Below are positions 11,826 through 27,319 of a stretch of 39,898 bases of DNA, piece after piece. The DNA is taken from positions 1 through 39,898 of the IMG/VR virus record IMGVR_UViG_3300027804_000105; one strand, given 5' to 3'. The position numbers were made by a program, and so were the translations under genes. The stretch is from a virus. Lineage: Duplodnaviria; Caudoviricetes. Numbering within the stretch: position 1 is the stretch's first letter; each line of letters begins with the position of its first letter. Below the pieces are notes generated by a model. It worked only from the letters and a program-made list of their open reading frames with translations, was not told where the DNA came from and did not search any database.

Positions 11826-11993
11826 CTACCTAGGGAAACACACTCATGGCGAACTACGGAGTGGCAATTACCTAGGCAAAACACCCTAGGTATCCCTACT
11901 CAGTGGAATCTACCCAGGGTAAACTCCCTAAGTATGGCTACCTAGTGGAACATACCTAGTGTAAACACCCTAGGTAGTAGCACCTAGGGCTGG
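11826..11993. repeat. 12 x 14-bp degenerate tandem array, consensus about CTACCTAGKGNAAN
   Basis: CCTAG at 11829, 11871, 11885, 11941, 11955, 11969 and 11983, with variants at 11843, 11857, 11899, 11913 and 11927, all in an exact 14-bp register. Confidence 0.88.
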
Positions 11994-15545: not shown

Positions 15546-15800
15546 ATGAGTAAGACGTGCCCAACCTGCGGGCAGTTGATGCCCGGGCTTCCTTCGGCCC
15601 GCAGGGGACGCCCGCCGGTTCGCCATCCGGCTTGCGCCCGTGCCTTTGAAAACCAACGCGAGGCCGAGCGTATGCGTCGCAACCGTTCGGAAGTGAATAC
15701 GAGACGCGAAAGGCTTGACCTTTGGCATCAAATCCGGTCTTTTCTTTATCAGCCAACGGCAAGTCCGCTTGAGCTTTTGATGCTTTCGGAAGAGGAATGA
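15546..15800 (+). CDS. Small Zn-ribbon protein
   Basis: Start MSKTCPTCGQ after GGAGG; RRGRPP motif and HPAC. Confidence 0.6.
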   Translation: MSKTCPTCGQLMPGLPSARRGRPPVRHPACARAFENQREAERMRRNRSEVNTRRERLDLWHQIRSFLYQPTASPLELLMLSEEE

Positions 15801-15826
15801 AATGCAAGCCGCAGCTCAAACTACCT

Positions 15827-16096
15827 ATGAAAACACAGGAAACGAAACCGGAAATGACGGCTCCATTGGCTCTGGCGCCTTGTTCGGCCGCAGCAGCAAC
15901 AATGTTCGGCCGCACGATCTTGGTTGGAGACTACGTGCATGTGCGATTCCCGTGGGGCCGTTTTTACGGAGAAATGGAGGGCACCGTGCTGGAGCTAAAA
16001 CGGTTACGGTGCGGCAAGCACGAGGGGCGCCTTCCGTGCGGTTTGTGGTTTCAAGAATCAGATGAGCTTTTGAATCACAAGCCGAACTCCAAATGA
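15827..16096 (+). CDS. Cassette protein (SH3/KOW-like beta protein)
   Basis: Starts MKTQETKPEM upstream of half site A; ends ...KPNSK* across attC B. Confidence 0.65.
   Translation: MKTQETKPEMTAPLALAPCSAAAATMFGRTILVGDYVHVRFPWGRFYGEMEGTVLELKRLRCGKHEGRLPCGLWFQESDELLNHKPNSK
15866..15888 (-). repeat. attC half site A (R''/L'' arm only)
   Basis: TTGGCTCTGGCGCCTTGTTCGGC; no partner arm found upstream. Confidence 0.7.
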
Positions 16097-16172
16097 TGAA
16101 CCACGCCCAACCAACGCGGCTACGCTTCGCCCCGCCGGCTACGTGGGCGTTGGTTCTGGCGACTTGTTAGTC
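16081..16172 (-). repeat. attC site B
   Basis: GCCGAAC...GAACCACGCCCA / TGGGCGTTGGTTC (one extra T)...GTTAGTC. Confidence 0.85.
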
Positions 16173-16185
16173 ATTCTTCCGAACG

Positions 16186-16317
16186 ATGAAAAAAGCAAAA
16201 AACATGGATGAGGCATGGAAAATCCAAGAAACCTACGAAGGCAAGCCGCACGGCTGGGTGCAGTGGAATGGGACGGTGCTACGCCGAGGAAAAAGACTCT
16301 ATGAAACCAACCGATGA
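16186..16317 (+). pseudogene. Probably truncated cassette gene
   Basis: MKKAKNMDEAWKIQETYEGKPHGWVQWNGT... stops after 43 aa where the left arm of attC C is missing. Confidence 0.45.
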
Positions 16318-16660
16318 AAATAGCGCGGCGGCACAGGCCGTTGCCACTGGGGACTTGTTCTGCGCTTCGCTCGAATGGCACAAGGGGCCGGCCGAGGGCG
16401 GACAGGGCTCCGCAGGAAAGAACGATGACGGAGTTCCGCAGTGGTGGGACGGCGACCGCCTGCTCATCATCGTGGAGACCTGTGCCGGGCGTGAGATGGC
16501 CGTCGTGGACATCAGAGCGGACCAAGAATACTTCGACGTGCGCGATGCCAGCACTGGCGACACCTATGATGCGTGGGAGCCGGAATGCTGGTCGTGGTGG
16601 GCAAAACTCACAAAGCACAATCTTCCGCAGAACGTCAAAGATGAGCCACGCCGCAAATGA
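16301..16660 (+). CDS. Cassette protein, hypothetical
   Basis: Start MKPTDENS; ends ...PQNVKDEPRRK* inside attC D. Confidence 0.7.
   Translation: MKPTDENSAAAQAVATGDLFCASLEWHKGPAEGGQGSAGKNDDGVPQWWDGDRLLIIVETCAGREMAVVDIRADQEYFDVRDASTGDTYDAWEPECWSWWAKLTKHNLPQNVKDEPRRK
16338..16363 (-). repeat. attC half site C (R''/L'' arm only)
   Basis: CCGTTGCCACTGGGGACTTGTTCTGC; its core GTTCTGC is complementary to GCAGAAC at 16627. Confidence 0.7.
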
Positions 16661-16715
16661 GTAACGACACCACCAACCAGCAACCGTCGGCTATGGCTCT
16701 GGCGCCTTGTTCGGC
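16627..16715 (-). repeat. attC site D
   Basis: GCAGAACGTCAAAGATGAGCCA...TGGCTCTGGCGCCTTGTTCGGC. Confidence 0.85.
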
Positions 16716-16721
16716 ATTCTT

Positions 16722-16964
16722 ATGGGCAAAAGACTACCAGTAAACGCGCGCTTTATCGAGCAACCAGCCGAGCTAGTGCTGTGCCTTTCATGCGCGTGGC
16801 AAGGCGATTGGAACTCCCTCAAAACCCAACCATCGCGCCGTGCGCACGCAACCGACGGCCGCGCTAAGTGCCCCCGTTGCAAAACGCCGGGACACTTCAA
16901 AAGGATTGGGCCGAACGGTCGGAGTGAGCCAACGCCGAGGACAGAGCCATTACTTCACCCCTGA
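16722..16964 (+). CDS. Cassette protein, Zn finger (CLSC...CPRC)
   Basis: ATG at 16722; two CxxC pairs; ends ...GPNGRSEPTPRTEPLLHP* inside attC E. Confidence 0.65.
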   Translation: MGKRLPVNARFIEQPAELVLCLSCAWQGDWNSLKTQPSRRAHATDGRAKCPRCKTPGHFKRIGPNGRSEPTPRTEPLLHP

Positions 16965-16998
16965 GACTGTCGGCGTTGGCTCTAATCCGTGGTTGGCC
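16910..16998 (-). repeat. attC site E
   Basis: GCCGAAC...GAGCCAACGCCGA / TCGGCGTTGGCTC...GTTGGCC. Confidence 0.85.
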
Positions 16999-17038
16999 GG
17001 CCGTGGAATTGGTGCCCGAAAATATAATCGAAACACGC

Positions 17039-17066
17039 TTGACGGACTAGGCGCAATGCCTAGTGT
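17039..17066 (+). promoter_or_regulatory. Cassette-internal promoter with overlapping palindromic operator
   Basis: TTGACG-16 nt-TAGTGT; inverted repeat ACTAGGC-N5-GCCTAGT at 17046-17064. Confidence 0.6.
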
Positions 17067-17108
17067 GAGTGTGTCGGAGGCAATGACGCCCGAGACACCT
17101 AAACCAAA

Positions 17109-17300
17109 ATGAAAAACGAAATGATCAAAGCGAAGAGCCTCGAAGCCGCCAAAGCCAACGCCCCCGAGGGAACGCGCTTCGTGCATACCGCCTCGGTGAT
17201 GGATGATTGCGGAACGGGCGGCTTCTGCGGCTACTACTTCACCCCCGAGCAGGAGCGCGAATACAACGACGGAATGGCCCGCATGGCGGAGATGGGATGA
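17109..17300 (+). CDS. Cassette protein, hypothetical
   Basis: 63 aa, ATGA-coupled to the HTH gene. Confidence 0.6.
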   Translation: MKNEMIKAKSLEAAKANAPEGTRFVHTASVMDDCGTGGFCGYYFTPEQEREYNDGMARMAEMG

Positions 17301-17491
17301 GCTCCGACGCCTACAAAGCCGAGCGCGAACGGCGCGGCACGCAAGCGAGCGTTGCCGCGCTCTTGCGCGTCGATCCGCAAACAATCTCCCGCCGCGAGCG
17401 CGGGGAAATCCCCATCACCCACGAAGCCGGGCTTGCTCTTCTTTCGCTCCCGAAGAAACGCAAGCGCCCGCTCAGGCCGGCCAACGTCTAA
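17297..17491 (+). CDS. XRE/Cro-type HTH DNA-binding protein
   Basis: GTQASVAALLRVDPQTISRRERGEIPI matches the HTH_XRE pattern; ends ...PANV* in attC F. Confidence 0.85.
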   Translation: MSSDAYKAERERRGTQASVAALLRVDPQTISRRERGEIPITHEAGLALLSLPKKRKRPLRPANV

Positions 17492-17608
17492 TATGAGCCA
17501 CGCACCCGAATACAATTGCCCGCCCGTGTGCGGGGAATGCCGCCGAGCGCATCGCGGGCCATGCCAGCCAGACCAGCCCGGTGCGTTGGCTCTGGGGACT
17601 GGTTGGAC
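17479..17608 (-). repeat. attC site F
   Basis: GGCCAAC...GAGCCACGCACC / GGTGCGTTGGCTC (extra T)...GTTGGAC. Confidence 0.85.
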
Positions 17609-17795
17609 TGCGCCGTCCGCCATACCCCCTGACGTGGCCCGTAAGATCATTGCGGCCCGTGATGCTATCGCCAACGAAGACACGTCCGAAGCGTGGCATC
17701 AGCTCTATTCCATCGCCGATCCATCGTTTGAGAGCGTGACCCCGTGGGCGATTCTCGAAGCGAAGTCCAACGTCAAAGATGAGCCACGCCCCTAA
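17493..17795 (+). CDS. Cassette protein, hypothetical
   Basis: ATG lies in the attC F arm (MSHAPEYNC...); ends ...KSNVKDEPRP* in attC G. Confidence 0.65.
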   Translation: MSHAPEYNCPPVCGECRRAHRGPCQPDQPGALALGTGWTAPSAIPPDVARKIIAARDAIANEDTSEAWHQLYSIADPSFESVTPWAILEAKSNVKDEPRP

Positions 17796-17868
17796 AATGG
17801 ACACGAATACCACTGACTCTCCGAAAACTCAGGGCAACCCTAGCGTTGGCTCTGGCGCCTTGTTCGGC
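17765..17868 (-). repeat. attC site G
   Basis: GTCCAACGTCAAAGATGAGCCACGC...GCGTTGGCTCTGGCGCCTTGTTCGGC. Confidence 0.85.
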
Positions 17869-18133
17869 GGCTTGGATGCCTCGTCGGCCTCTGTGGCGGC
17901 GTATGCCGTGACGGTGCGTGGCGCTGCTCAACCTGCGGAAAAACTCTCAATTACCATGACGACAAACCCTGACGGGAAACCCTATATCCACAACGCCGAG
18001 CAATCGGAGGCCGCGAAGTCATCGTCGCGCTTTCGCTGGAAAAGCGCGGCCTTGGCCGGTTCGTCTCTGAGCGCGCCGAGTATCGCCTCCCCGGCGACCG
18101 CCGCATCGTCCACCATGGTGGACACTTCTACAC

Positions 18134-18355
18134 ATGAGAGCATACCACACCACAGAAAGCCTCGGCATCAAAGCCCTTGAGCGCCCCGCCTATGAGCGCG
18201 GCGACTTCCCGCGCTACCTTGTCACTGTGGACGGCAAGACCGAGACCGTCAAAACGCCCCGCGCCCTTCAAAAGCTACTAGGCTCGATCTACTCCGAACG
18301 ACCGGAGGTGTTCGTGAACGCTGGCAACGGAATCAGCATAAACTTTGACCAATGA
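18134..18355 (+). CDS. Hypothetical protein
   Basis: 73 aa, ATGA-coupled to the next gene. Confidence 0.6.
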   Translation: MRAYHTTESLGIKALERPAYERGDFPRYLVTVDGKTETVKTPRALQKLLGSIYSERPEVFVNAGNGISINFDQ

Positions 18356-18639
18356 CCAACGCCGACCTCGAAACCATACGCCGCGCCATCTCCGAGGTGT
18401 GCGCGGCCTACGATGAACCGGACAGCCCCGAGGCTCTATCCTGCGCGTTCTATCAACTGCGCCGTGTGCGCGACTACGTGCTCCCGCGCTGCGCTCCGAC
18501 CGGGCGCAAAGGCGGGCTGTCCAAGTCGCCCGCGTTGCAGGCTGCGCGGCGTGCCAATGGTGCGAAATCCAAAGGACGCCCCCGCAAGCCGGTTGACGCG
18601 GCACGCAATGGCCCTAGGATCGCGTTTAGACCAATTTGA
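18352..18639 (+). CDS. Basic putative DNA-binding protein
   Basis: C-terminal GRKGG..KS....AARRANG....GRPRK motif, frequent in phage proteins. Confidence 0.6.
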   Translation: MTNADLETIRRAISEVCAAYDEPDSPEALSCAFYQLRRVRDYVLPRCAPTGRKGGLSKSPALQAARRANGAKSKGRPRKPVDAARNGPRIAFRPI

Positions 18640-18823
18640 GGTGGTCGTTGATGGGAAGACAGGGGTTGCTCGTGGACCCCGTAGAATTGGACGGCATTTG
18701 CGTCCCGATTGGTCTTCGGGGTGGGCTTCGGAGTAGGAGGCTGGCTCAAAGTGGCTAGAATTTGAAGGAAAGTGCCATTTTGGGCTTGCAAACATGGGTG
18801 ATAGTATTCATTCCTTCAATCAA

Positions 18824-18926
18824 GCGGTATCGGAGCCGCGCAACAACCCATTTCGGTAGGCTTAATTGCCCCGACCGATGGCCCAGTGGCGTGAAACTCC
18901 GATCTCCCCACTGGGCCTTTTCTTTT
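18824..18926 (+). ncRNA. Candidate three-hairpin regulatory RNA ending in a terminator
   Basis: Three stems; ATCGGAG (18829-18835) is complementary to CTCCGAT (18897-18903) in the loop of the last stem GGCCCAGTGG/CCACTGGGCC, followed by a T-tract. Confidence 0.5.
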
Positions 18927-19262
18927 GGCCCACGCAGAACCCAAGGCTGCGTTAAGCTACAGAGCACTTGGGGGCTTTAAGCGGCTTAACAGTCAGCAGA
19001 GCTAGATTGAACCACAAATCCTAGAGTCCCTTTCACGGAGTTTCAGGCGTCTAGGTCAGGATACGAGGCGACAGCAGACGGCATACAGCGACGGGTTCAA
19101 TCGAAAGCAAGGAGAGGTCCTCTTTGCGAATCAGCTCTCGGCAAATCGAAGTTTTCCTTAGCTTTCCGGCTCAGGAAACTCCGCTATGCACCGGCACCAG
19201 CGACGGTAAGGCGGAGGGAGTGATAGGGAGTGTTAATAAATCAATGTTAAAGGCGAACAACT

Positions 19263-19829
19263 ATGAGTAGAATGAGCGAATCGGAGGCTTACAAGTTAGC
19301 CAAGGAGCTTTTTAGCTACGATCCCGAAACTGGGATTATTACTCGCATTGCAGCTCCCGTAAAGAGCAACGGCAGTAGGGATAACCGAGGGGTTGGCAAG
19401 CCAACTGGATCGCTCAGTTCGCAAGGGTATCTACAGACCTGCATTTTTAGAAAAAGGTTTTCCAACCACCGGCTCGCATGGTTGCTACAAACCGGTGCGT
19501 GGCCTAAACAAGAAATTGATCATATCAACGGGGTCAAGACCGACAACCGTTGGTGCAATCTTCGGGACGTAAGTCGGATTGAAAACATGGCCAATCGGCA
19601 TAAGAAATGGGGAAAGAATAAGGGCCTTCCCATTGGGATTACTGAACAAGTCCATAAGGGTGGGTATCGTTATTTTCTGGTGACTCATGCTCGAAACCAC
19701 GTTTGTAGGGCATCTACTCGCTCTACCCTTGACGAAGCAATAGAACTGCTGCAAGCATTCCGCGACGAACTCAGATCACTTTCTGCCACAACGGCGGATT
19801 ATCAAAACAACCAACAAGTCAGCAACTAA
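19263..19829 (+). CDS. HNH (homing-type) endonuclease
   Basis: YDPETG, HRLAW and EIDHINGVKTDNRWCNLR motifs; lower GC. Confidence 0.9.
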   Translation: MSRMSESEAYKLAKELFSYDPETGIITRIAAPVKSNGSRDNRGVGKPTGSLSSQGYLQTCIFRKRFSNHRLAWLLQTGAWPKQEIDHINGVKTDNRWCNLRDVSRIENMANRHKKWGKNKGLPIGITEQVHKGGYRYFLVTHARNHVCRASTRSTLDEAIELLQAFRDELRSLSATTADYQNNQQVSN

Positions 19830-19841
19830 CCAATACCAACT

Positions 19842-20426
19842 ATGTGTTCACTCATTTTGACCGAAACCAAGAAGAAGTCCGATCCTACGCCCAGGGGCCT
19901 GCATCAAGTGGTCTGCTACGGCGTCATTGACATCGGCACGCAGAAGTCGGCCAATCCGGCCCATCCCGACAAGCGGAAGGTGCTTCTGCTGTTCGAGCTG
20001 CCCCACGAAACCAAGGTGTTTGACGGCAAAGAGGAGCGTCGGGTTATGTCCCGCTCGCTGGCAATTTCAATGAACGAAAAGGCCACCCTGTTCAAGTTCC
20101 TGTCCGGTTGGCTGGGGGAGAAGCCCAAGACCGGCTTTGACCTCCGCAGCCTGATTGGGAAGAACGGACAGGCCAACGTGGTTCATAGCCCCAGCAAGTC
20201 CGACCCCAGCACCATCTACGCCAACCTGGACTCGGTGGTTGCGCTTGCCAAGGGTATGCAGGCCGTTGCGCCCAGCCGCGAAACCATCACCTTCACCATC
20301 CCGCCCGGCGGCCCCATCGACATCCCGAGCTACATGCCTGAGTGGATTGCCGATAAGATTCAGGAAAGCGCCGAGTTCAAGGCGCGGGTTGGGGCGGCGG
20401 CGGCGGTGAAGATGGGCGGGGAATAA
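19842..20426 (+). CDS. Phage replication/SSB-like protein (resembles NGO0469 family)
   Basis: H..VCYGVIDIGTQ, FELP, SMNEKATL and MPEWIADKI.ES.E motifs. Confidence 0.6.
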   Translation: MCSLILTETKKKSDPTPRGLHQVVCYGVIDIGTQKSANPAHPDKRKVLLLFELPHETKVFDGKEERRVMSRSLAISMNEKATLFKFLSGWLGEKPKTGFDLRSLIGKNGQANVVHSPSKSDPSTIYANLDSVVALAKGMQAVAPSRETITFTIPPGGPIDIPSYMPEWIADKIQESAEFKARVGAAAAVKMGGE

Positions 20427-20641
20427 AAGCGAACACTGACAGTTGAGGGGTGTCCCCTTCAAAAGCACAACACGGGGTCCGGGTTGAAGTCCCGGCAGGC
20501 GCCCAGCGCCGAGCTAATGCAGCACCCCGTTTCAATTTTGACATTTCCCTCCCGGCCGAAGCCTTACGCTTGACGTAGGATAGGAGACCGGCTCCGTAGG
20601 CACGGGCGGGACTAAACCAGCAAACACAGAAAGACAAACCT

Positions 20642-20953
20642 ATGATAAGCAACACGGCGGCAAAATGCCTCAACGAATCCCCGCATGAATCATTCATGCG
20701 CTGGTTCGAGACCAAAATGACCGAGCTTGAGAAGAACAACTTCTTGGTTATGCCCAAGCAAAAAACGTCTCAAGCGGTGGGCTTTGCGAAAACGGAAAGG
20801 CCGCGCACGCCGGCTACGATGGCAAAACTCGCCAAGGCCGAAGAGATTGTTGCGGCCAACCCCAACATCAGCCGCAAACGGCTTAGTAAGCTCACGGGGG
20901 TATGCGACAAGGTTCTCCGTGCCAAGTTCGGTAAAGCCGCCTATTTCCGATGA
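20642..20953 (+). CDS. Putative DNA-binding protein (C-terminal HTH)
   Basis: NPNISRKRLSKLTGVCDKVLR. Confidence 0.55.
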   Translation: MISNTAAKCLNESPHESFMRWFETKMTELEKNNFLVMPKQKTSQAVGFAKTERPRTPATMAKLAKAEEIVAANPNISRKRLSKLTGVCDKVLRAKFGKAAYFR

Positions 20954-21135
20954 ACGAGTATCTCAACGAATCTATCCGGCTGCGTAGCGAGCTGATCGCC
21001 AGCAATGCCCTTCTGCGCGACGCCGAGGCAATCATTGCCGACTTCATGCGCTATTTTCCCGGCCCCGAGTGCCAAGAGCAGGAATCGGTTTGCGACGATG
21101 CCAGGGCTTTCCTGAAGGCTCTCAATGAACGCTGA
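20950..21135 (+). CDS. Hypothetical protein
   Basis: 61 aa, ATGA-coupled. Confidence 0.55.
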   Translation: MNEYLNESIRLRSELIASNALLRDAEAIIADFMRYFPGPECQEQESVCDDARAFLKALNER

Positions 21136-21412
21136 AACAAACAAAGGTGCTTGGACGAAATGGTCCGACGCCAACCACGCTGCTGTCGAAGCAGCGGAAG
21201 CTCTGGCGCCTTGTTCGGCCCTTCGGTGGGCCGTCTTTCCGTGCGGATGGAAATGGGAAATTGCTAGTCTGACGCGCGAAAACGAAACCCCGGTCGCGCT
21301 TTTTGAGCACAAGCACCACGCAGAATCTTTCTGCCGCGAATGGTGGCCGGCCCTCGGCGAAGTGCGCCCTTTGCCGAACACCAAGAGCAGCCGCGGCACG
21401 GCGCAGCCGTGA
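21125..21412 (+). CDS. Cassette protein, hypothetical
   Basis: Reads through half site H (ALAPCSA); ends ...LPNTKSSRGTAQP* in attC I. Confidence 0.65.
   Translation: MNAETNKGAWTKWSDANHAAVEAAEALAPCSALRWAVFPCGWKWEIASLTRENETPVALFEHKHHAESFCREWWPALGEVRPLPNTKSSRGTAQP
21200..21219 (-). repeat. attC half site H
   Basis: GCTCTGGCGCCTTGTTCGGC, identical to the arms of A, D and G. Confidence 0.7.
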
Positions 21413-21437
21413 CGTTGGCTGTCTCGCTTTGTTAGGT
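21373..21437 (-). repeat. attC site I (65 bp, canonical)
   Basis: Minus strand reads ACCTAACAAAGCGAGACAGCCAACGTCACGGCTGCGCCGTGCCGCGGCTGCTCTTGGTGTTCGGC. Confidence 0.9.
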
Positions 21438-21460
21438 GCCTCTTTCTCCAACTCACGAAA

Positions 21461-21823
21461 ATGAAATTCACAGTCTCAAAACGCTTCTCCTTCGAGGCCG
21501 CTCACTCGCTGCCTCAACTCCCTGTCGGGCACAAGTGCCGCAACGTGCATGGCCACTCCTACGTCGTGGAAATCCACGTCGCCGGCCCGCTCGACTCGCG
21601 CGGCTTCGTGGTGGACTACGCCGATCTATCGCTGGCGATGGCCCCAATTATCGCGCGACTGGATCACCAGAATATCAACGATGTGCTCCCGTGCAGCACC
21701 ACCGCCGAAAACCTCGGCGCGTGGATCATGTCGCAGCTCGACAAACACTCAGGGCTGAAACCGCGCGTCTCGCGTGTGGATGTGTATGAGACGGCGAAAA
21801 CCTGCGTGCGCGTGGAAAGATGA
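21461..21823 (+). CDS. queD: 6-carboxytetrahydropterin synthase
   Basis: FEAAH, C..VHGHSY, LDH..IN, TAEN and YET motifs. Confidence 0.93.
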   Translation: MKFTVSKRFSFEAAHSLPQLPVGHKCRNVHGHSYVVEIHVAGPLDSRGFVVDYADLSLAMAPIIARLDHQNINDVLPCSTTAENLGAWIMSQLDKHSGLKPRVSRVDVYETAKTCVRVER

Positions 21824-22473
21824 TGATTCTCGCCGGACAATCCAATCCGCTCTGGCACTACGCCGCTGGCCGCTGGCCGGGTAAGGTGGGGCTACTGCTT
21901 GGACCTGCCTACTTTCGCAAGCAGGCAATCCGTCCGTGGCTGACCTACGTGCTCGACAACGACGCTTTCTCGGCTTGGAGCAACGGCACGGAATGGAATC
22001 ACGCCGCATGGACTGAGATGCTAAGGCGCGCGATGCTCAACAAGCACAAACCTGCGTGGGTGCTCGTGCCGGACGTTGTGGCGGATAAAGCGGCAACGCT
22101 TGCAAGCTGGGACCGGCACGCTCCCGAGGCCGCGAGCTACGGCTGGCCGCTCGCCTTCGCCGTGCAGGATGGAATGACACCGGACGACGTGCCGGAAAAC
22201 GCACAGGTGATCTTTGTCGGCGGCACAACCGAATGGAAATGGCGCAGCCTGCCGATGTGGTGTGCGAGATTTCGGCGGGTGCATGTGGGGCGCGTCAACA
22301 ACATCGAAAAAGTCTATCACTGCGAAGACATGGGCGTTGAGTCCGTGGACGGCACCGGATGGTTCAAAGACCCAACGCGCGAAGACAAACTTCCCGCCCT
22401 GCTTTCTTGGTTTGAAGGCGAGAGGCGCAACGAAAAACAAATGGCGTTGATTGAGGCACCTAACGTTAAATGA
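21820..22473 (+). CDS. Putative TGT/DpdA-like TIM-barrel protein
   Basis: LDNDAFS, VPDVV, AVQDG, FVGG..WK, HVGRVN and SVDGTG motifs; ATGA-coupled to queD; ends ...APNVK* in attC J. Confidence 0.6.
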   Translation: MMILAGQSNPLWHYAAGRWPGKVGLLLGPAYFRKQAIRPWLTYVLDNDAFSAWSNGTEWNHAAWTEMLRRAMLNKHKPAWVLVPDVVADKAATLASWDRHAPEAASYGWPLAFAVQDGMTPDDVPENAQVIFVGGTTEWKWRSLPMWCARFRRVHVGRVNNIEKVYHCEDMGVESVDGTGWFKDPTREDKLPALLSWFEGERRNEKQMALIEAPNVK

Positions 22474-22585
22474 TGAGCCACGGAGCGGGAAATGAAACAC
22501 CCGCCCGTAGCTCAAACTACCTATGAAAACACAGGAAACGAAACCGGAAATGACCGCTCCGTTGGACTCTGGCGATTTGTTGGGC
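22458..22585 (-). repeat. attC site J
   Basis: ACCTAAC...GAGCCACGGAGCGG / CCGCTCCGTTGGACTC...GTTGGGC. Confidence 0.85.
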
Positions 22586-22879
22586 GCGGCCAAGAATGCA
22601 ATCAAGGGGTGGGCCGAACTCACCGATACGACGCACCCGCGCGCCTTCGCTCGCATGAGCGCCGCGATTGAAAAACTCTGCGATGCAATTGAGGAGCACG
22701 AATCCGCCGAAGCCGGGCGTGTCGTGGACGCCATGACGCCCGAACAGGTGGATGCATACCTCGTGAGCATGGGCGTGAATCTCGACGAGATGCGTGCGCA
22801 CACCGAACAGATGCGGCAAAAACTGACCGCGCGCTTTTCTTCGCCCAACGTCGCGGATGACCGAGCCGCAACCAAGTAG
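22523..22879 (+). CDS. Cassette protein, hypothetical
   Basis: Starts MKTQETKPEM in the attC J loop; ends ...SPNVADDRAATK* in attC K. Confidence 0.7.
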   Translation: MKTQETKPEMTAPLDSGDLLGAAKNAIKGWAELTDTTHPRAFARMSAAIEKLCDAIEEHESAEAGRVVDAMTPEQVDAYLVSMGVNLDEMRAHTEQMRQKLTARFSSPNVADDRAATK

Positions 22880-22933
22880 GCCGCACTTCGCCCTGCGGCG
22901 AACGTGCGGCTTCGGTCTGGACGCTTGTTCGAA
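22843..22933 (-). repeat. attC site K
   Basis: GCCCAAC...GACCGAGCCGCA / TGCGGCTTCGGTC (extra T)...GTTCGAA. Confidence 0.85.
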
Positions 22934-22956
22934 AAGACCGAGCCAATGACTTCCAA

Positions 22957-23247
22957 ATGAAAACCAAAACTCAAATCTGTAAGCTCTGCGAGATATTCGG
23001 CGATGGCCCCTGCTCTCCGAAATGCCTAGAGGCTGCGCAGGAAAAGGTGGCGCGTGCGATCCACGCGGAACACAACGCGCATGAGGGGCTGGAAACTGCG
23101 TGGATCGAGCTACACCATTTCCAGCGGGAGAAATATCGCGGCAAAGCATACGCCGCCCTCGTGGCTCTGGGAGCGCCAAAGAAAAAGGCCACGCCGAGGC
23201 GGTCGAACGTCCCGGATCAGCAACGCGCAGGAGCGAAGGAGAAATAA
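22957..23247 (+). CDS. Cassette protein, Cys-rich N-terminus
   Basis: CKLC...CSPKC; ends ...RSNVPDQQRAGAKEK* in attC L. Confidence 0.65.
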   Translation: MKTKTQICKLCEIFGDGPCSPKCLEAAQEKVARAIHAEHNAHEGLETAWIELHHFQREKYRGKAYAALVALGAPKKKATPRRSNVPDQQRAGAKEK

Positions 23248-23459
23248 ACAATGCCCACGAAAAACACCATAGACGACGCCAGCCATCAAGAATGGTCCAA
23301 AGCCGGACAGATGCCGACCGAGCAACAGCGCCGCGACTGGTATGCAAAATCTGCGAAGATCGAAGGCGACGCCTGCGTGGGCGCTGGACTCCCGAGCGGA
23401 ATCGCGCCGTGCAAACCGCAGGCTCCGTCAGCGCGTTCGCTGTGGCCGGATGGTTCTCT
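23202..23459 (-). repeat. attC site L (very long loop)
   Basis: GTCGAACGTCCCGGATCAGCAACGCGC pairs with GCGCGTTCGCTGTGGCCGGATGGTTCTCT about 200 nt away. Confidence 0.7.
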
Positions 23460-23673
23460 TCCGGTCGTGGAAGCCGAAGCTCTGGAACGCAAATGGTCCG
23501 AAGACGTGCAATGGTGGCGAGACAGAGCGAAGTCCCAAATCGAAAAAGGACACCCACTACTCGCGGAACTATCGTCGCAGTCCGCAGACGTGCTATCGGG
23601 CTGTGCCGCGCAGCTTGGCCGACTGATAGCACAGTCGAAATCGCGCCAGCCGGAAGAGAACAAGGAGGTATGA
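23251..23673 (+). CDS. Cassette protein, hypothetical
   Basis: AAGGAG ribosome-binding site and ATG inside the attC L loop; ends ...PEENKEV*. Confidence 0.7.
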   Translation: MPTKNTIDDASHQEWSKAGQMPTEQQRRDWYAKSAKIEGDACVGAGLPSGIAPCKPQAPSARSLWPDGSLPVVEAEALERKWSEDVQWWRDRAKSQIEKGHPLLAELSSQSADVLSGCAAQLGRLIAQSKSRQPEENKEV

Positions 23674-23704
23674 CAACTTTCAAAGTTAAAAAACTAACTC
23701 ATTT

Positions 23705-24508: not shown

Positions 24509-24734
24509 ACGCAAACCCAAGCCAGAAGAAAAGCCGGCGGTTGTGGAACGAGCAAGGCCCGTAAGCGGACTGCCGCTGGACTTTAGCCGCTGCTGGAACG
24601 ACGAGTGCGTCAAGGGAAGCACCTGCCTGCGTCGCATTGGAGCTATGGACGTAGGCGCCACCGTTTTCTTCAAGCCCAACCTAAACAAAGATGGTGCCTG
24701 CGAGCATTTCATTCAGGACAAACGAAATAAATGA
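24498..24734 (+). CDS. Small Cys-rich hypothetical protein
   Basis: GTG start; D.SRC....C.....C.R...C pattern; ATGA-coupled to dnaB. Confidence 0.55.
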   Translation: MAAKRKPKPEEKPAVVERARPVSGLPLDFSRCWNDECVKGSTCLRRIGAMDVGATVFFKPNLNKDGACEHFIQDKRNK

Positions 24735-27319
24735 CCAAAGCCAAAACAAACCTCCCCCATTCCGAAGAGGGTGAACGGTCTCTCATAACGCACGTCCTTT
24801 TGGACGGCGCTCCCGCCCTCTGCAAATGCTTTGAGGGCAAAATTACGCCGGAGGTGTTTTACGACCCGGTTTGCCAGAAGGTATGGAAGTCGATTTGCTG
24901 GCTGCACAAGCAAGGACACCCCGTTGAGCTTGCCGTGTTAGCAGAGGAGCTTAAAAAGGCCGGCAAACTGGACGAGCTAGGGGGCTACGAAGCTCTTACC
25001 ACCGTCACAAGCGGTCAGGACATCAGCAAAAACCTCGACTACTGGGTAGCTCGGCTGCGTGAGCTTTACGTCCTCCGCGAGCTTCATGGGGCTGCCACCC
25101 GCACCGCCGAAAAGGCTCTGGCCTACTCCGGCAGCGTCGAAGACTTCGTTTCCGAGACCCACCGCATCCTCTCCATCCAGCACGCCGCCCAAAAGGCCAT
25201 GACGCTGCCCGAGGCGGCTACCTCCGCCCAAGAGCAATGCTTACGAATCCGAGGCTCTGAACCGCTTACGGAAGAGGACAAGGGACTGTCTTGGGGTTGG
25301 AAAGACTGGGACGACCGTTTCGGCTGCGCCAAGGCCGGCGAACTGCTGGTTTTGGGAGCCCGTCCAGGATGCGGAAAGAGCAGCATTGCCCGCCAAGTGG
25401 CATGGGAATGGTCAAAGGGCGGCAAAATCCTCTTATTTTCAAGGGAAATGCCCGTAGAAGGGCTTCCTGTGCTCTTTGCCCAAGCCCTTTCCGGCAAGTC
25501 ATGGAAGGAATACCGCAACCGGAGGCTTCACGACAAGGACATGGACGAGTTTGATGACGCCTTGGCTGCCGTGTCCCGCAACCCAAACATCCTCGCTTTT
25601 GACAAGGACCGGACGCTTTCGCAGCTCATGGCCCGTATTCAGGCTTGCCGTCAACTTATGCCCATCCGTGCTGTTGTCGTGGACTACCTGCAACGCTACG
25701 ATCCGCAGCAAGAGCGCGGGGAAACCCGCGACATTGCCATAGGTCGGTTTAGTATGGCGCTCAAGGATGTTGCCGTTGACCTCAAGATTCCGGTTTTGCT
25801 TCTGGTTCAGGTCAGCCGAGGGGTGGAGAAAGAGGATCGGGAGCCACGTCTTTCCGACATCCGAGAGTGTCTTTCCGTAAAGGACACCTACGTCTTCAAC
25901 AGCCAAGGCATCTGGCGCAACACCGAGGCCCCCATCGCCACCGTCGGCCTGTCTCAAGGCGGCAGCTTGGTTGCCTCCGAAAGCCGTAACGCTCCGCGAG
26001 AGGATGCGCCGGAAATGATTCGGATAACGCTCCAGAGCGGCCGAACCATCACCTGCACGCCCCGCCATGCCATCAAAACCGACAACGGGTGGACGATTGC
26101 CGAAGCCATCACCAAGGAAAGCGCCATTGCCTGCGCCCGCCGCATCCCTGCCCCCCGCAACTGCGAATACTTCCACGTAAGCCGCTGGATGGGGTGGATG
26201 CTTGGCAACGGCTCCGGCGTCGGCAGCCAGTCGCCATCCTTCATCACGTCATGCGAGGTTGTGGCCCAAGAGTTCTGCAAACAGAATAATGCGCTGTTTG
26301 GCTTCTACCCGAAGCCTCATCGCCACAAGTGCCAGAAGGTGTTTCAATACGACATCACGAAGCATACCGTTCGGACGCCCGAGGGCAATCCGGCTACCAA
26401 CTGGATGCGGAAGCATGACATGTGGGGACGCCGCTCATGGGAGAAGCGCATCCCCCAATGGTTTTGCGAGACAGCCGACAACCAGAGCCTTGCCGAGCTT
26501 ATCGCCGGCCTTTGGGAGACGGACGGGCGTGTCATGCTCAAGCCCCGCCCCTCCCTGTCCTACTCCACCACTTCCGAGCACATGGCTTGGCAGGTTGTTT
26601 GGGCGCTCCTTCGCCTCGGCATCTACGCCGCAATTGAGCCCGGATACATGGGAAAGAAGGCAAAGCATCCTTGTTTCAAGGTTTGTATCCGCGTAGCCGA
26701 AGAAATAGCGCGGTTTGCCGCCAAAATCCCGCTCATTGGCCGCAAGGGCGACTTGCTACGTCAGGTTGATTCAACCCGAACCAGCAACATCGCAGGCTCC
26801 CGTTTCAGCGTAGGCGTTGGCAAACTCGTTGAGTCCATCAGGAAACGCTACGGCCTTACCCATGCCCAAATCGGCTATCGCTTTCAGGGCAAGCGTATCT
26901 CCTACGATGATTTGATGCGAGTTTGGGCGAACCTCATGGACAGAGGCATGATGAATGAACACATCCAAAGTCTTGTCGGAGAGGACGTGTTTTGGGACAA
27001 GCCGCGTAAGATTGAGCGCGTGGCCGGCGGACCGGTGTTTGATCGGGTTGTCCCCGAGCACCACAACTTCGTAGCCAACGGGGTCATAGTTCACAACTCG
27101 GGCAACGTGGAGCAGGATGCAGATCGCGTCATATTCATCCACGCACCTACCGCCCTTCCAGACGGCAGCACTCAAGACCTAAACGATGGCGACTTGCGAC
27201 GAATCCACACCAACCTTATCCAAGCCAAAGGCCGTGGAGAGGGAAGAGACAAGTTGACAATGTTCTTCAATCGCCCAATAACCGCTTTTGAAGAGGAACG
27301 AAAGGGATTGAAACTATGA
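24731..27319 (+). CDS. dnaB: Replicative DNA helicase DnaB with intein
   Basis: LPHS.E.E N-domain, GARPGCGKS, VVDYLQ, Q.SR, P.LSDIRE|intein|SGNVEQDAD, K.R. Confidence 0.95.
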   Translation: MTKAKTNLPHSEEGERSLITHVLLDGAPALCKCFEGKITPEVFYDPVCQKVWKSICWLHKQGHPVELAVLAEELKKAGKLDELGGYEALTTVTSGQDISKNLDYWVARLRELYVLRELHGAATRTAEKALAYSGSVEDFVSETHRILSIQHAAQKAMTLPEAATSAQEQCLRIRGSEPLTEEDKGLSWGWKDWDDRFGCAKAGELLVLGARPGCGKSSIARQVAWEWSKGGKILLFSREMPVEGLPVLFAQALSGKSWKEYRNRRLHDKDMDEFDDALAAVSRNPNILAFDKDRTLSQLMARIQACRQLMPIRAVVVDYLQRYDPQQERGETRDIAIGRFSMALKDVAVDLKIPVLLLVQVSRGVEKEDREPRLSDIRECLSVKDTYVFNSQGIWRNTEAPIATVGLSQGGSLVASESRNAPREDAPEMIRITLQSGRTITCTPRHAIKTDNGWTIAEAITKESAIACARRIPAPRNCEYFHVSRWMGWMLGNGSGVGSQSPSFITSCEVVAQEFCKQNNALFGFYPKPHRHKCQKVFQYDITKHTVRTPEGNPATNWMRKHDMWGRRSWEKRIPQWFCETADNQSLAELIAGLWETDGRVMLKPRPSLSYSTTSEHMAWQVVWALLRLGIYAAIEPGYMGKKAKHPCFKVCIRVAEEIARFAAKIPLIGRKGDLLRQVDSTRTSNIAGSRFSVGVGKLVESIRKRYGLTHAQIGYRFQGKRISYDDLMRVWANLMDRGMMNEHIQSLVGEDVFWDKPRKIERVAGGPVFDRVVPEHHNFVANGVIVHNSGNVEQDADRVIFIHAPTALPDGSTQDLNDGDLRRIHTNLIQAKGRGEGRDKLTMFFNRPITAFEEERKGLKL
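25868..27097 (+). mobile_element. Intein (410 aa) with LAGLIDADG homing endonuclease
   Basis: Begins CLSVKDT, block B TCTPRH, LAGLIDADG-like GWMLGNGS and LIAGLWETDG, ends HNFVANGVIVHN followed by Ser. Confidence 0.95.

Follow-up and report, generated by a model that had tools for sequence, protein, structure and literature searches.

Comparison with described integron systems

Integron cassettes are taught as a promoterless gene and a non-coding attC recombination site, the strand bias of which fixes the direction of the gene. Here we describe attC-like sites in a tailed phage genome (Caudoviricetes; IMG/VR record IMGVR_UViG_3300027804_000105, positions 1 to 39,898), which was analysed over its full length of 39,898 bp and is referred to as the window. 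The window contains two arrays of small genes, array 1 (~15800-18350) and array 2 (~21140-23660). Nine full attC-like hairpins (B, D, E, F, G, I, J, K and L) and three lone right arms (A, C and H) were found in these arrays, all on the + strand, as are the open reading frames (ORFs) designated by the same letters. Where an ORF crosses a right arm, the part of its product encoded before the right-arm GTT is called the leader and the remainder the body. We consider it likely that these are attC sites of the Verrucomicrobiota type reversed relative to the phage genes, forming hairpin-first and probably mobile cassettes in which many genes start within their own site.

Clusters of attC sites and integrons are known in phages, and phage attC sites recombined with IntI1 (Qi et al. 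2023, PMC9892861). The clusters of attC sites lacking integron-integrases (CALINs) in that study resemble the present arrays in being located in integrase-less phages; its abstract, introduction and section 3.4 make no mention of reversed genes, in-site start codons or leader-body swaps, and its supplements might show gene direction. The sedentary chromosomal integrons of Opitutales (e.g. L226-L228) share the arm consensus and the unpaired T with the phage sites, the median site length is similar (98 bp, compared to 108 bp in the phages), and the arrays are located upstream of intI. In these bacteria, however, the genes run antisense to the motif and in-frame starts are not in excess in the G-rich loops, whereas the phage arrays have sense genes and A-rich coding loops and have lost the bottom-strand stability bias.

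Short ORFs in attC or attI relieve translation barriers, as summarised in a review (Jacquier 2009, ORF-11, via PMC8876359). The short ORFs crossing sites B, D and J, which overlap neighbouring stops or starts, are comparable to the ORF-11 type; unlike the latter, the main protein here would itself begin within the site and retain the peptide that the site encodes. Protein-embedded attC sites have been engineered and proposed for protein-module shuffling (Nivina et al. 2020, PMC7439510). The phage sites also lie in protein-coding sequence and would be a natural counterpart of these, with evidence of re-paired halves. Deletion of attC was reported to have mostly little effect on downstream expression (10.1101/2024.03.26.586746). 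No description of reversed phage cassettes with starts inside attC was found in the literature searched, which mostly did not include subscription papers.

Identification of the sites as attC

All nine full sites had paired L boxes and complementary R boxes, the latter with the conserved AAC/GTT. Trained on 184 sites of other loci, with the window excluded, a position-weight detector recovered seven of the nine full sites and the lone right arms A and H; K was missed and E was detected only as a right arm. The same detector found no full sites in 20 dinucleotide shuffles of the window. Two loci identical to the window (L210 and L211) were excluded from this and every other count.

The attC bottom strand has an extrahelical base opposite the cleaved AAC arm (PMC5027507), which is matched by an unpaired T on the arm opposite AAC in 70 of 83 viral and 218 of 230 bacterial sites. 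This T was located on the + strand right arm in five of the seven detected window sites, such that the window sites show this attC feature only if the + strand is the bottom strand. The recombinogenic fold had a predicted probability of 0.15-0.81 for D, E, F, I and L and 0.06 for K (J was not properly constrained). The bottom strand formed the more stable fold in 186 of 223 bacterial sites compared to 34 of 83 viral sites; judging from PMC5027507, loss of this bias could weaken strand choice in the viral sites.

Eight of the nine window sites were within the 56-141 bp reported for attC sites of mobile integrons (PMC5371416). Site L (258 bp) was beyond this range and longer than all 83 viral (maximum 188 bp) and 230 bacterial (maximum 156 bp) sites, although its constrained fold had a predicted probability of ~0.5 on the + strand. 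The size range given in the initial annotation, from ~65 bp at site I to 258 bp at site L, was reproduced. Site L is no assembly error, being spanned with 0 differences by contigs in three of four runs.

Like a CALIN, the record holds attC arrays (two, with all sites on one strand) and has no PF00589 match. It has neither the intI nor the attI of a complete integron, and where a canonical cassette has a top-strand gene with attC at its 3′-end, the genes here lie on the bottom strand and carry the site at the 5′-end. Classification of the array as a reversed-cassette CALIN with probably translated attC sites, which is integron-cassette-like, is well supported.

Orientation of the sites and boundaries of the cassettes

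A degenerate right-arm pattern was found mainly in Verrucomicrobiota, above all Opitutales, among at least 169 genome loci; the exact 23-nt right-arm pattern matched no viral contigs. Four of five genomes carrying such sites encoded an IntI above the NCBIfam cut-off (TIGR02249). In three of these genomes the array was upstream of intI, and the motif was on the intI strand at 15/15, 20/20 and 6/6 sites. The inter-site ORFs beside IntI were antisense to the motif in 35 of 36 cases, as were 115 of 126 at the remaining bacterial loci. Viral intervals, by comparison, had genes sense to the motif in 34 of 46 cases (10 antisense, 2 ties), and those of the window did so in four of five. As the motif is on the intI strand, with bacterial genes antisense and window genes sense to it, the + strand motif of the window represents the attC bottom strand. 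Crossover is therefore expected at the left-arm AA/C, and a gene starts in the site of its own cassette. The right-arm GTT, called the core in the initial annotation, is not the expected crossover. Judging solely from the likeness of the sites, the phage host may be a member of the Opitutales. Separately, the viral-labelled loci L236 and L252 carry a homogeneous 88-bp attC array with genes oriented as in bacteria, and may represent a chromosomal integron that was captured or mislabelled.

The junctions between related sequences were located at AAC. In viral contig L003 a 368-nt duplicated cassette begins at AAC and ends at the next AAC. The match of the C body to L212-L214, and that of the L body to L215, also ended at AAC. 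The closest relative, L229, shares the backbone of the window but differs in array contents, and its backbone identity restarts at window 23659, at the AAC past the last body, where no hairpin is present. This AAC (23659-23661, +) forms the right border of array 2 and is a likely insertion point. Junctions at AAC define the cassette as a hairpin plus its downstream body, and hence the loop start codon belongs to the gene's own cassette. Their positions also fit the recombination by IntI that would be expected at AA/C of the bottom strand. Among 90 viral and window sites, the upstream gene read the left AAC as an Asn codon at 50 and had its stop in TAAC at 13; it was in another frame at 8, and no long frame was present at 19.

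Start codons within the sites

Seven ORFs start ahead of a right arm and cross it, with leaders of 18 (A), 18 (C), 36 (F), 21 (G), 29 (H), 18 (J) and 67 (L) amino acids before the GTT. The ATGs at 15827, 16301, 17493, 22523 and 23251, which had been proposed as starts in the initial annotation, are all present and 5′ of a right-arm GTT. All five read through the right arm in frame, giving the peptides ALAPCSA, ATGDLF, ALGTGW and SGDLLG and, for L, ARSLWPDGS.

Of 82 distinct viral sites, 50 contained an ATG whose frame stays open for at least 40 codons beyond the foot, compared to 32.7 +/- 3.3 when hairpins and flanks were re-paired (0 of 5000 permutation rounds). The same test of bacterial sites gave 42 of 224 against 39.5 +/- 4.5, which is no excess. 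When the L-box ATG was left out, 40 of 78 viral sites (32 loci) still had an in-frame start, compared to 18.6 +/- 2.9 in shuffled loops. Following the GTT, the frame was free of start codons for 38 codons in C and 49 in H. The C body pattern was present in 11 of 13 homologues, with N-termini as predicted by gene callers; all 11 had differing leaders and no Met from there to the end. The seven ORFs thus likely draw their start codon and first 18-67 amino acids from the hairpin or right arm, and translation would begin at these ATGs.

The context of the starts was A/C-rich and not of the Shine-Dalgarno type, with Shine-Dalgarno-like words before 10 of 44 ordinary genes and 7 of 43 loop starts. 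Among all ATGs of the window, start context ranked in the 99th percentile for L, the 97th for J and A, the 90th for C and the 75th for F. Ribosome-binding sites had been proposed within the hairpins; because a well-spaced AAGGAG was present only at L, this holds for one site, and elsewhere there was only a weaker GAGG 12-15 nt before 16301. The proposal that attC doubles as recombination site and start module was upheld with respect to the attC family, the coding nature of the sites and the start module (frame matching and Met-less bodies), but it had missed the orientation.

The upstream stop was located 1 nt before the starts of F and G and 3 nt before that of L, and short ORFs cross hairpins B, D and J. 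Across the viral sites the stop was within -8 to +12 nt of the start in 27 of 39 cases, compared to a fraction of 0.37 +/- 0.12 in shuffled loops. The earlier suggestion that upstream stops and loop starts are coupled therefore has moderate support, and the proximity of stops and starts makes translational coupling likely. An apparent enrichment of ATGA overlaps (8 vs 0.6 by permutation) was dropped, as it disappeared under a fairer loop shuffle.

Re-pairing of leaders and bodies

The F body was found with more than 10 different leaders. The F leader in turn precedes three further bodies (P0072, P0117 and P0137). As a single body occurs with this many different hairpins, the finding bears on the open question of cassette origin. 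The L leader was kept as protein in four of seven homologues with diverging bodies, and the other three had the L body on a different leader. The 18-residue leader common to A and J precedes four different bodies (in the window and L207). In addition, contigs from natural populations depart from the window sequence just past the right feet of A, D and F. Six of eight runs had the F leader fused directly to the end of the backbone gene, the left arm being absent (joint 15804-17509).

The J body is 100% identical to that of P0022, which has another loop and leader and the same right-arm peptide. Since the loops differ and the right-arm peptide is identical, this swap is located in the stem; C and L212 showed the same stem-swap pattern. 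Exchange within the stem suggests recombination at short homologies, or slippage. The swaps at GTT (L and F) would fit either short homology or slippage, or top-strand action of an integrase.

Source of the integrase

An IntI above the cut-off was encoded directly downstream of same-strand sites in 4 of ~55 viral contigs, a hand count for which only the fetched stretches were searched and which includes many chance pattern matches. The IntI scores were 282 bits in L003, 330 in L242, 266.5 in L262 and 271.5 in L267; the L262 alignment contained one ambiguous base and a short gap, and the L267 IntI was without its N-terminal part. The intI start in L003, L242 and L262 is preceded, at a distance of ~35-45 nt, by an AAC at which the last gene ends, and this AAC likely marks a compact candidate attI. 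The L003 record also had portal, tail-fibre and replication-initiator matches.

Two further observations were made on these contigs. In L003:1222-5020 (G011) the first cassette duplicates a distal one. In L267:2174-3076 an ORF begins in an attC hairpin and continues into the C-terminal two thirds of the IntI sequence; the apparent fusion has a short middle part that reads as a methyltransferase-like start.

Proposed mechanism and alternatives

We propose that cassettes likely enter and leave the arrays at the left-arm AA/C through the action of an IntI from the host or a co-infecting phage. The incoming hairpin would give the upstream gene its last codons and its stop, usually near the hairpin's own start codon, so that a new cassette would likely arrive translationally coupled. 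Less often, exchange in the 27-nt right arm would re-pair leaders with bodies, probably through short-homology recombination or slippage and possibly also top-strand integrase events, and in-frame products would be kept by selection. The basis of this reading is the orientation of the sites, the frames across them, the junction positions and the re-pairing. From these we infer translation from the in-site ATGs, integrase action, coupling and the enzyme behind the right-arm swaps. On this model the phage sites are standard attC used in the opposite direction and translated. It provides a specific mechanism, open to testing, by which phage gene mosaics and small chimeric phage proteins could arise, and implies that cassette boundaries and start codons would be mis-called in such phages if the bacterial layout were assumed.

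Several observations weigh against this reading of reversed, hairpin-first cassettes. No tyrosine recombinase (PF00589) was found in this genome, and sites B and G folded poorly into the recombinogenic form (predicted 0.002 and 0.008). Ten of the 46 viral intervals look antisense, five of them in one homogeneous, bacterial-looking array. In the window alone the in-frame start test gave 4 of 7 against 3.6, which is not significant, and the viral and bacterial sites are related to one another, so that the counts are not independent. The start context of H (31st percentile) and G (17797; 20th) was low, and context scores did not differ between matched and unmatched loop ATGs (p = 0.19). The fraction of coupled sites lies within the range of 200 loop shuffles (maximum 0.75), and ATGA overlaps were not enriched (0.28 vs 0.27 in shuffled loops). 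The reliance on gene-caller N-termini for the homologues, and the alternative starts considered below, count in the same direction.

A more far-reaching version, which we advance tentatively and regard as somewhat doubtful, is that Verrucomicrobiota phages run a reversed-cassette integron system of their own, with phage IntI genes directly behind the array. If so, attC would be a standard connector that ends the upstream gene, restarts translation and adds an N-terminal module. New proteins would be assembled from a common stock of leaders and bodies through recombination at both hairpin feet, in part by top-strand integrase events that the loss of the strand bias had allowed; site L, with its 200-nt coding loop, would be a functional attC.

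That the sites are instead attC relics, on which integrase is inactive in this lineage and which phage functions shuffle by short-homology recombination between arms, appears unlikely to us. Both arms, the unpaired T and AAC/GTT are retained, at site L even across a 200-nt loop; array ends are located at a bare AAC without hairpin homology; IntI adjoins such cassettes in related phages; and other phage attC sites recombine with IntI1 (PMC9892861). Relics would nevertheless agree with the lack of a tyrosine recombinase in the genome and of a PF00589 match in 8 of 10 related records (several of which are fragments), with the origin of half site A at a short homology and with the lost bottom-strand stability bias (34/83 viral vs 186/223 bacterial). 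They would also agree with the loop swaps of C and J, located within the stem upstream of atypical right-arm bases where no IntI cut is expected, and with the PD-(D/E)XK exonuclease gene 3′ of array 2.

A further alternative keeps the ordinary attC orientation and has an mRNA hairpin hide the next start until the upstream ribosome melts it. The closeness of stops to starts would suit such a gate, as would the short ORFs crossing B, D and J, which recall a termination-reinitiation model outlined in a review (PMC8876359). The predicted accessibility of the start region (fraction unpaired) gave a divided result: at F it was 0.28, i.e. mostly paired, and a melting gate is plausible there, but it was 0.45-0.52 at J, A and G and 0.78 at L, which would be open. 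As leaders are present without a left arm at A, C and H, no gate is needed in these cases. With the orientation being reversed, and most class 1 cassettes having shown no change in downstream expression upon attC deletion (10.1101/2024.03.26.586746), we consider the gate a very improbable general explanation; a gate at F or J alone would fit the reversed-cassette reading.

Finally, that the leaders are annotation artefacts, with true starts 3′ of the GTT and frames open through the arms by chance, is scarcely credible: ATG, GTG or TTG alternatives do lie within 10 codons past the GTT in A, F, G, J and L, and the L-box consensus itself contains an ATG, but C and H lack any start over the 38 and 49 codons despite sequence conservation from the junction onwards, the excess persists without the L-box ATG, and the L leader is conserved as protein.

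Organisation of array 1

Array 1 begins with half site A (15862-15888), a lone right arm (the R′′/L′′ side of attC), the left arm of which was lost at short homology with the backbone gene end near 15795-15804. ORF A (15827-16096, 89 amino acids) has its leader in common with J through a 61-nt repeat and contains other in-frame ATGs at 15797 and 15902. The reversed attC-like site B (16081-16172) contains a 25-amino acid ORF (16093-16170) overlapping the stop of the upstream gene and terminating within the right box; the gene after site B has its own ATG (16186). Half site C (16338-16363) is a lone, atypical right arm with its GTT at 16357. ORF C (16301-16660, 119 amino acids) ends inside site D (16627-16715), where a 28-amino acid ORF (16657-16743) overlaps the upstream stop (ATGA) and an 80-amino acid gene with its own ATG begins at 16722.

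The upstream ORF stops in the loop of site E (16910-16998), and downstream of the site are a promoter-like stretch and two small genes, of which one encodes a helix-turn-helix (HTH) protein. This stretch (17015-17110) contains TTGACG, followed by the inverted repeat CTAGG-N6-CCTAG, and precedes a small gene and the HTH gene at 17297-17491. A consensus promoter and terminator scan of the window gave results at chance level. In site F (17479-17608) the ATG at 17493 is at the stem foot, and ORF F (17493-17795, 100 amino acids) consists of a hairpin-encoded, Cys-rich leader and a widespread body, ending inside site G (17765-17868). Site G holds the ATG at 17797 and another in-frame ATG at 17779. 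ORF G (17797-18180, 127 amino acids) matches homologues to approximately residue 75 and then diverges, the homologues continuing into a J-type body.

Organisation of array 2

The left end of array 2 is formed by half site H (21193-21219), a lone right arm crossed by ORF H (21125-21412, 95 amino acids), which matches PHROG 12692 from residue 32. The shortest site, I (21374-21438), is followed by a QueD-like gene with its own ATG (21461-21823) and a second gene (21820-22473). The latter is a PHROG 15826 gene, and this cassette (21461-22473) is possibly part of a 7-deazaguanine pathway. Site J (22458-22585) contains an 18-amino acid relay ORF (22470-22526) with an ATGA overlap at either end, one with the upstream stop and one with the ATG at 22523; ORF J (22523-22879) encodes 118 amino acids. 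Site K (22843-22933) has the upstream ORF stop in its loop, and the gene after it (22957-23247) has its own ATG. The loop of site L (23202-23459) contains the upstream stop (23245-23247), the AAGGAG, the ATG at 23251 and most of the 67-residue leader of ORF L (23251-23673, 140 amino acids). Altogether, five of the nine full sites (B, D, E, I and K) give no start to a long downstream ORF.

The phage record and related data sets

The 39,898 bp make up a whole phage record, which has a 34-nt repeat at its ends. Its genes include matches to a major head protein, terminase, DnaB helicase and exonuclease. The phage sequence was recovered from freshwater runs, three DNA runs giving pieces with 0 differences across both arrays. 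Contigs over parts of the arrays were also obtained from two RNA runs; because contigs carry no strand, start or level, these were not counted as evidence of expression. No GenBank phage matched window 22440-23700, and Rfam gave no match at gathering score, with three weak matches all located outside the arrays.

A gene at 19842 was considered as a possible recombination protein; it had no Pfam match, and its Atlas matches were unnamed phage clusters plus a DUF669 lead (23% of members). Between divergent gene blocks, at 11854-11976, a 39-nt repeat occurs three times with a spacing of 42 nt; the repeats are rich in CCTAGG-like palindromes and may form an operator or origin region. The HNH endonuclease gene (19263-19829) is replaced by a diverged or different sequence of similar length in several related populations. 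The DnaB helicase gene (24731-27319, 862 amino acids) contains a long insertion from approximately residue 380 to 790 with C...HN ends, which is intein-like.

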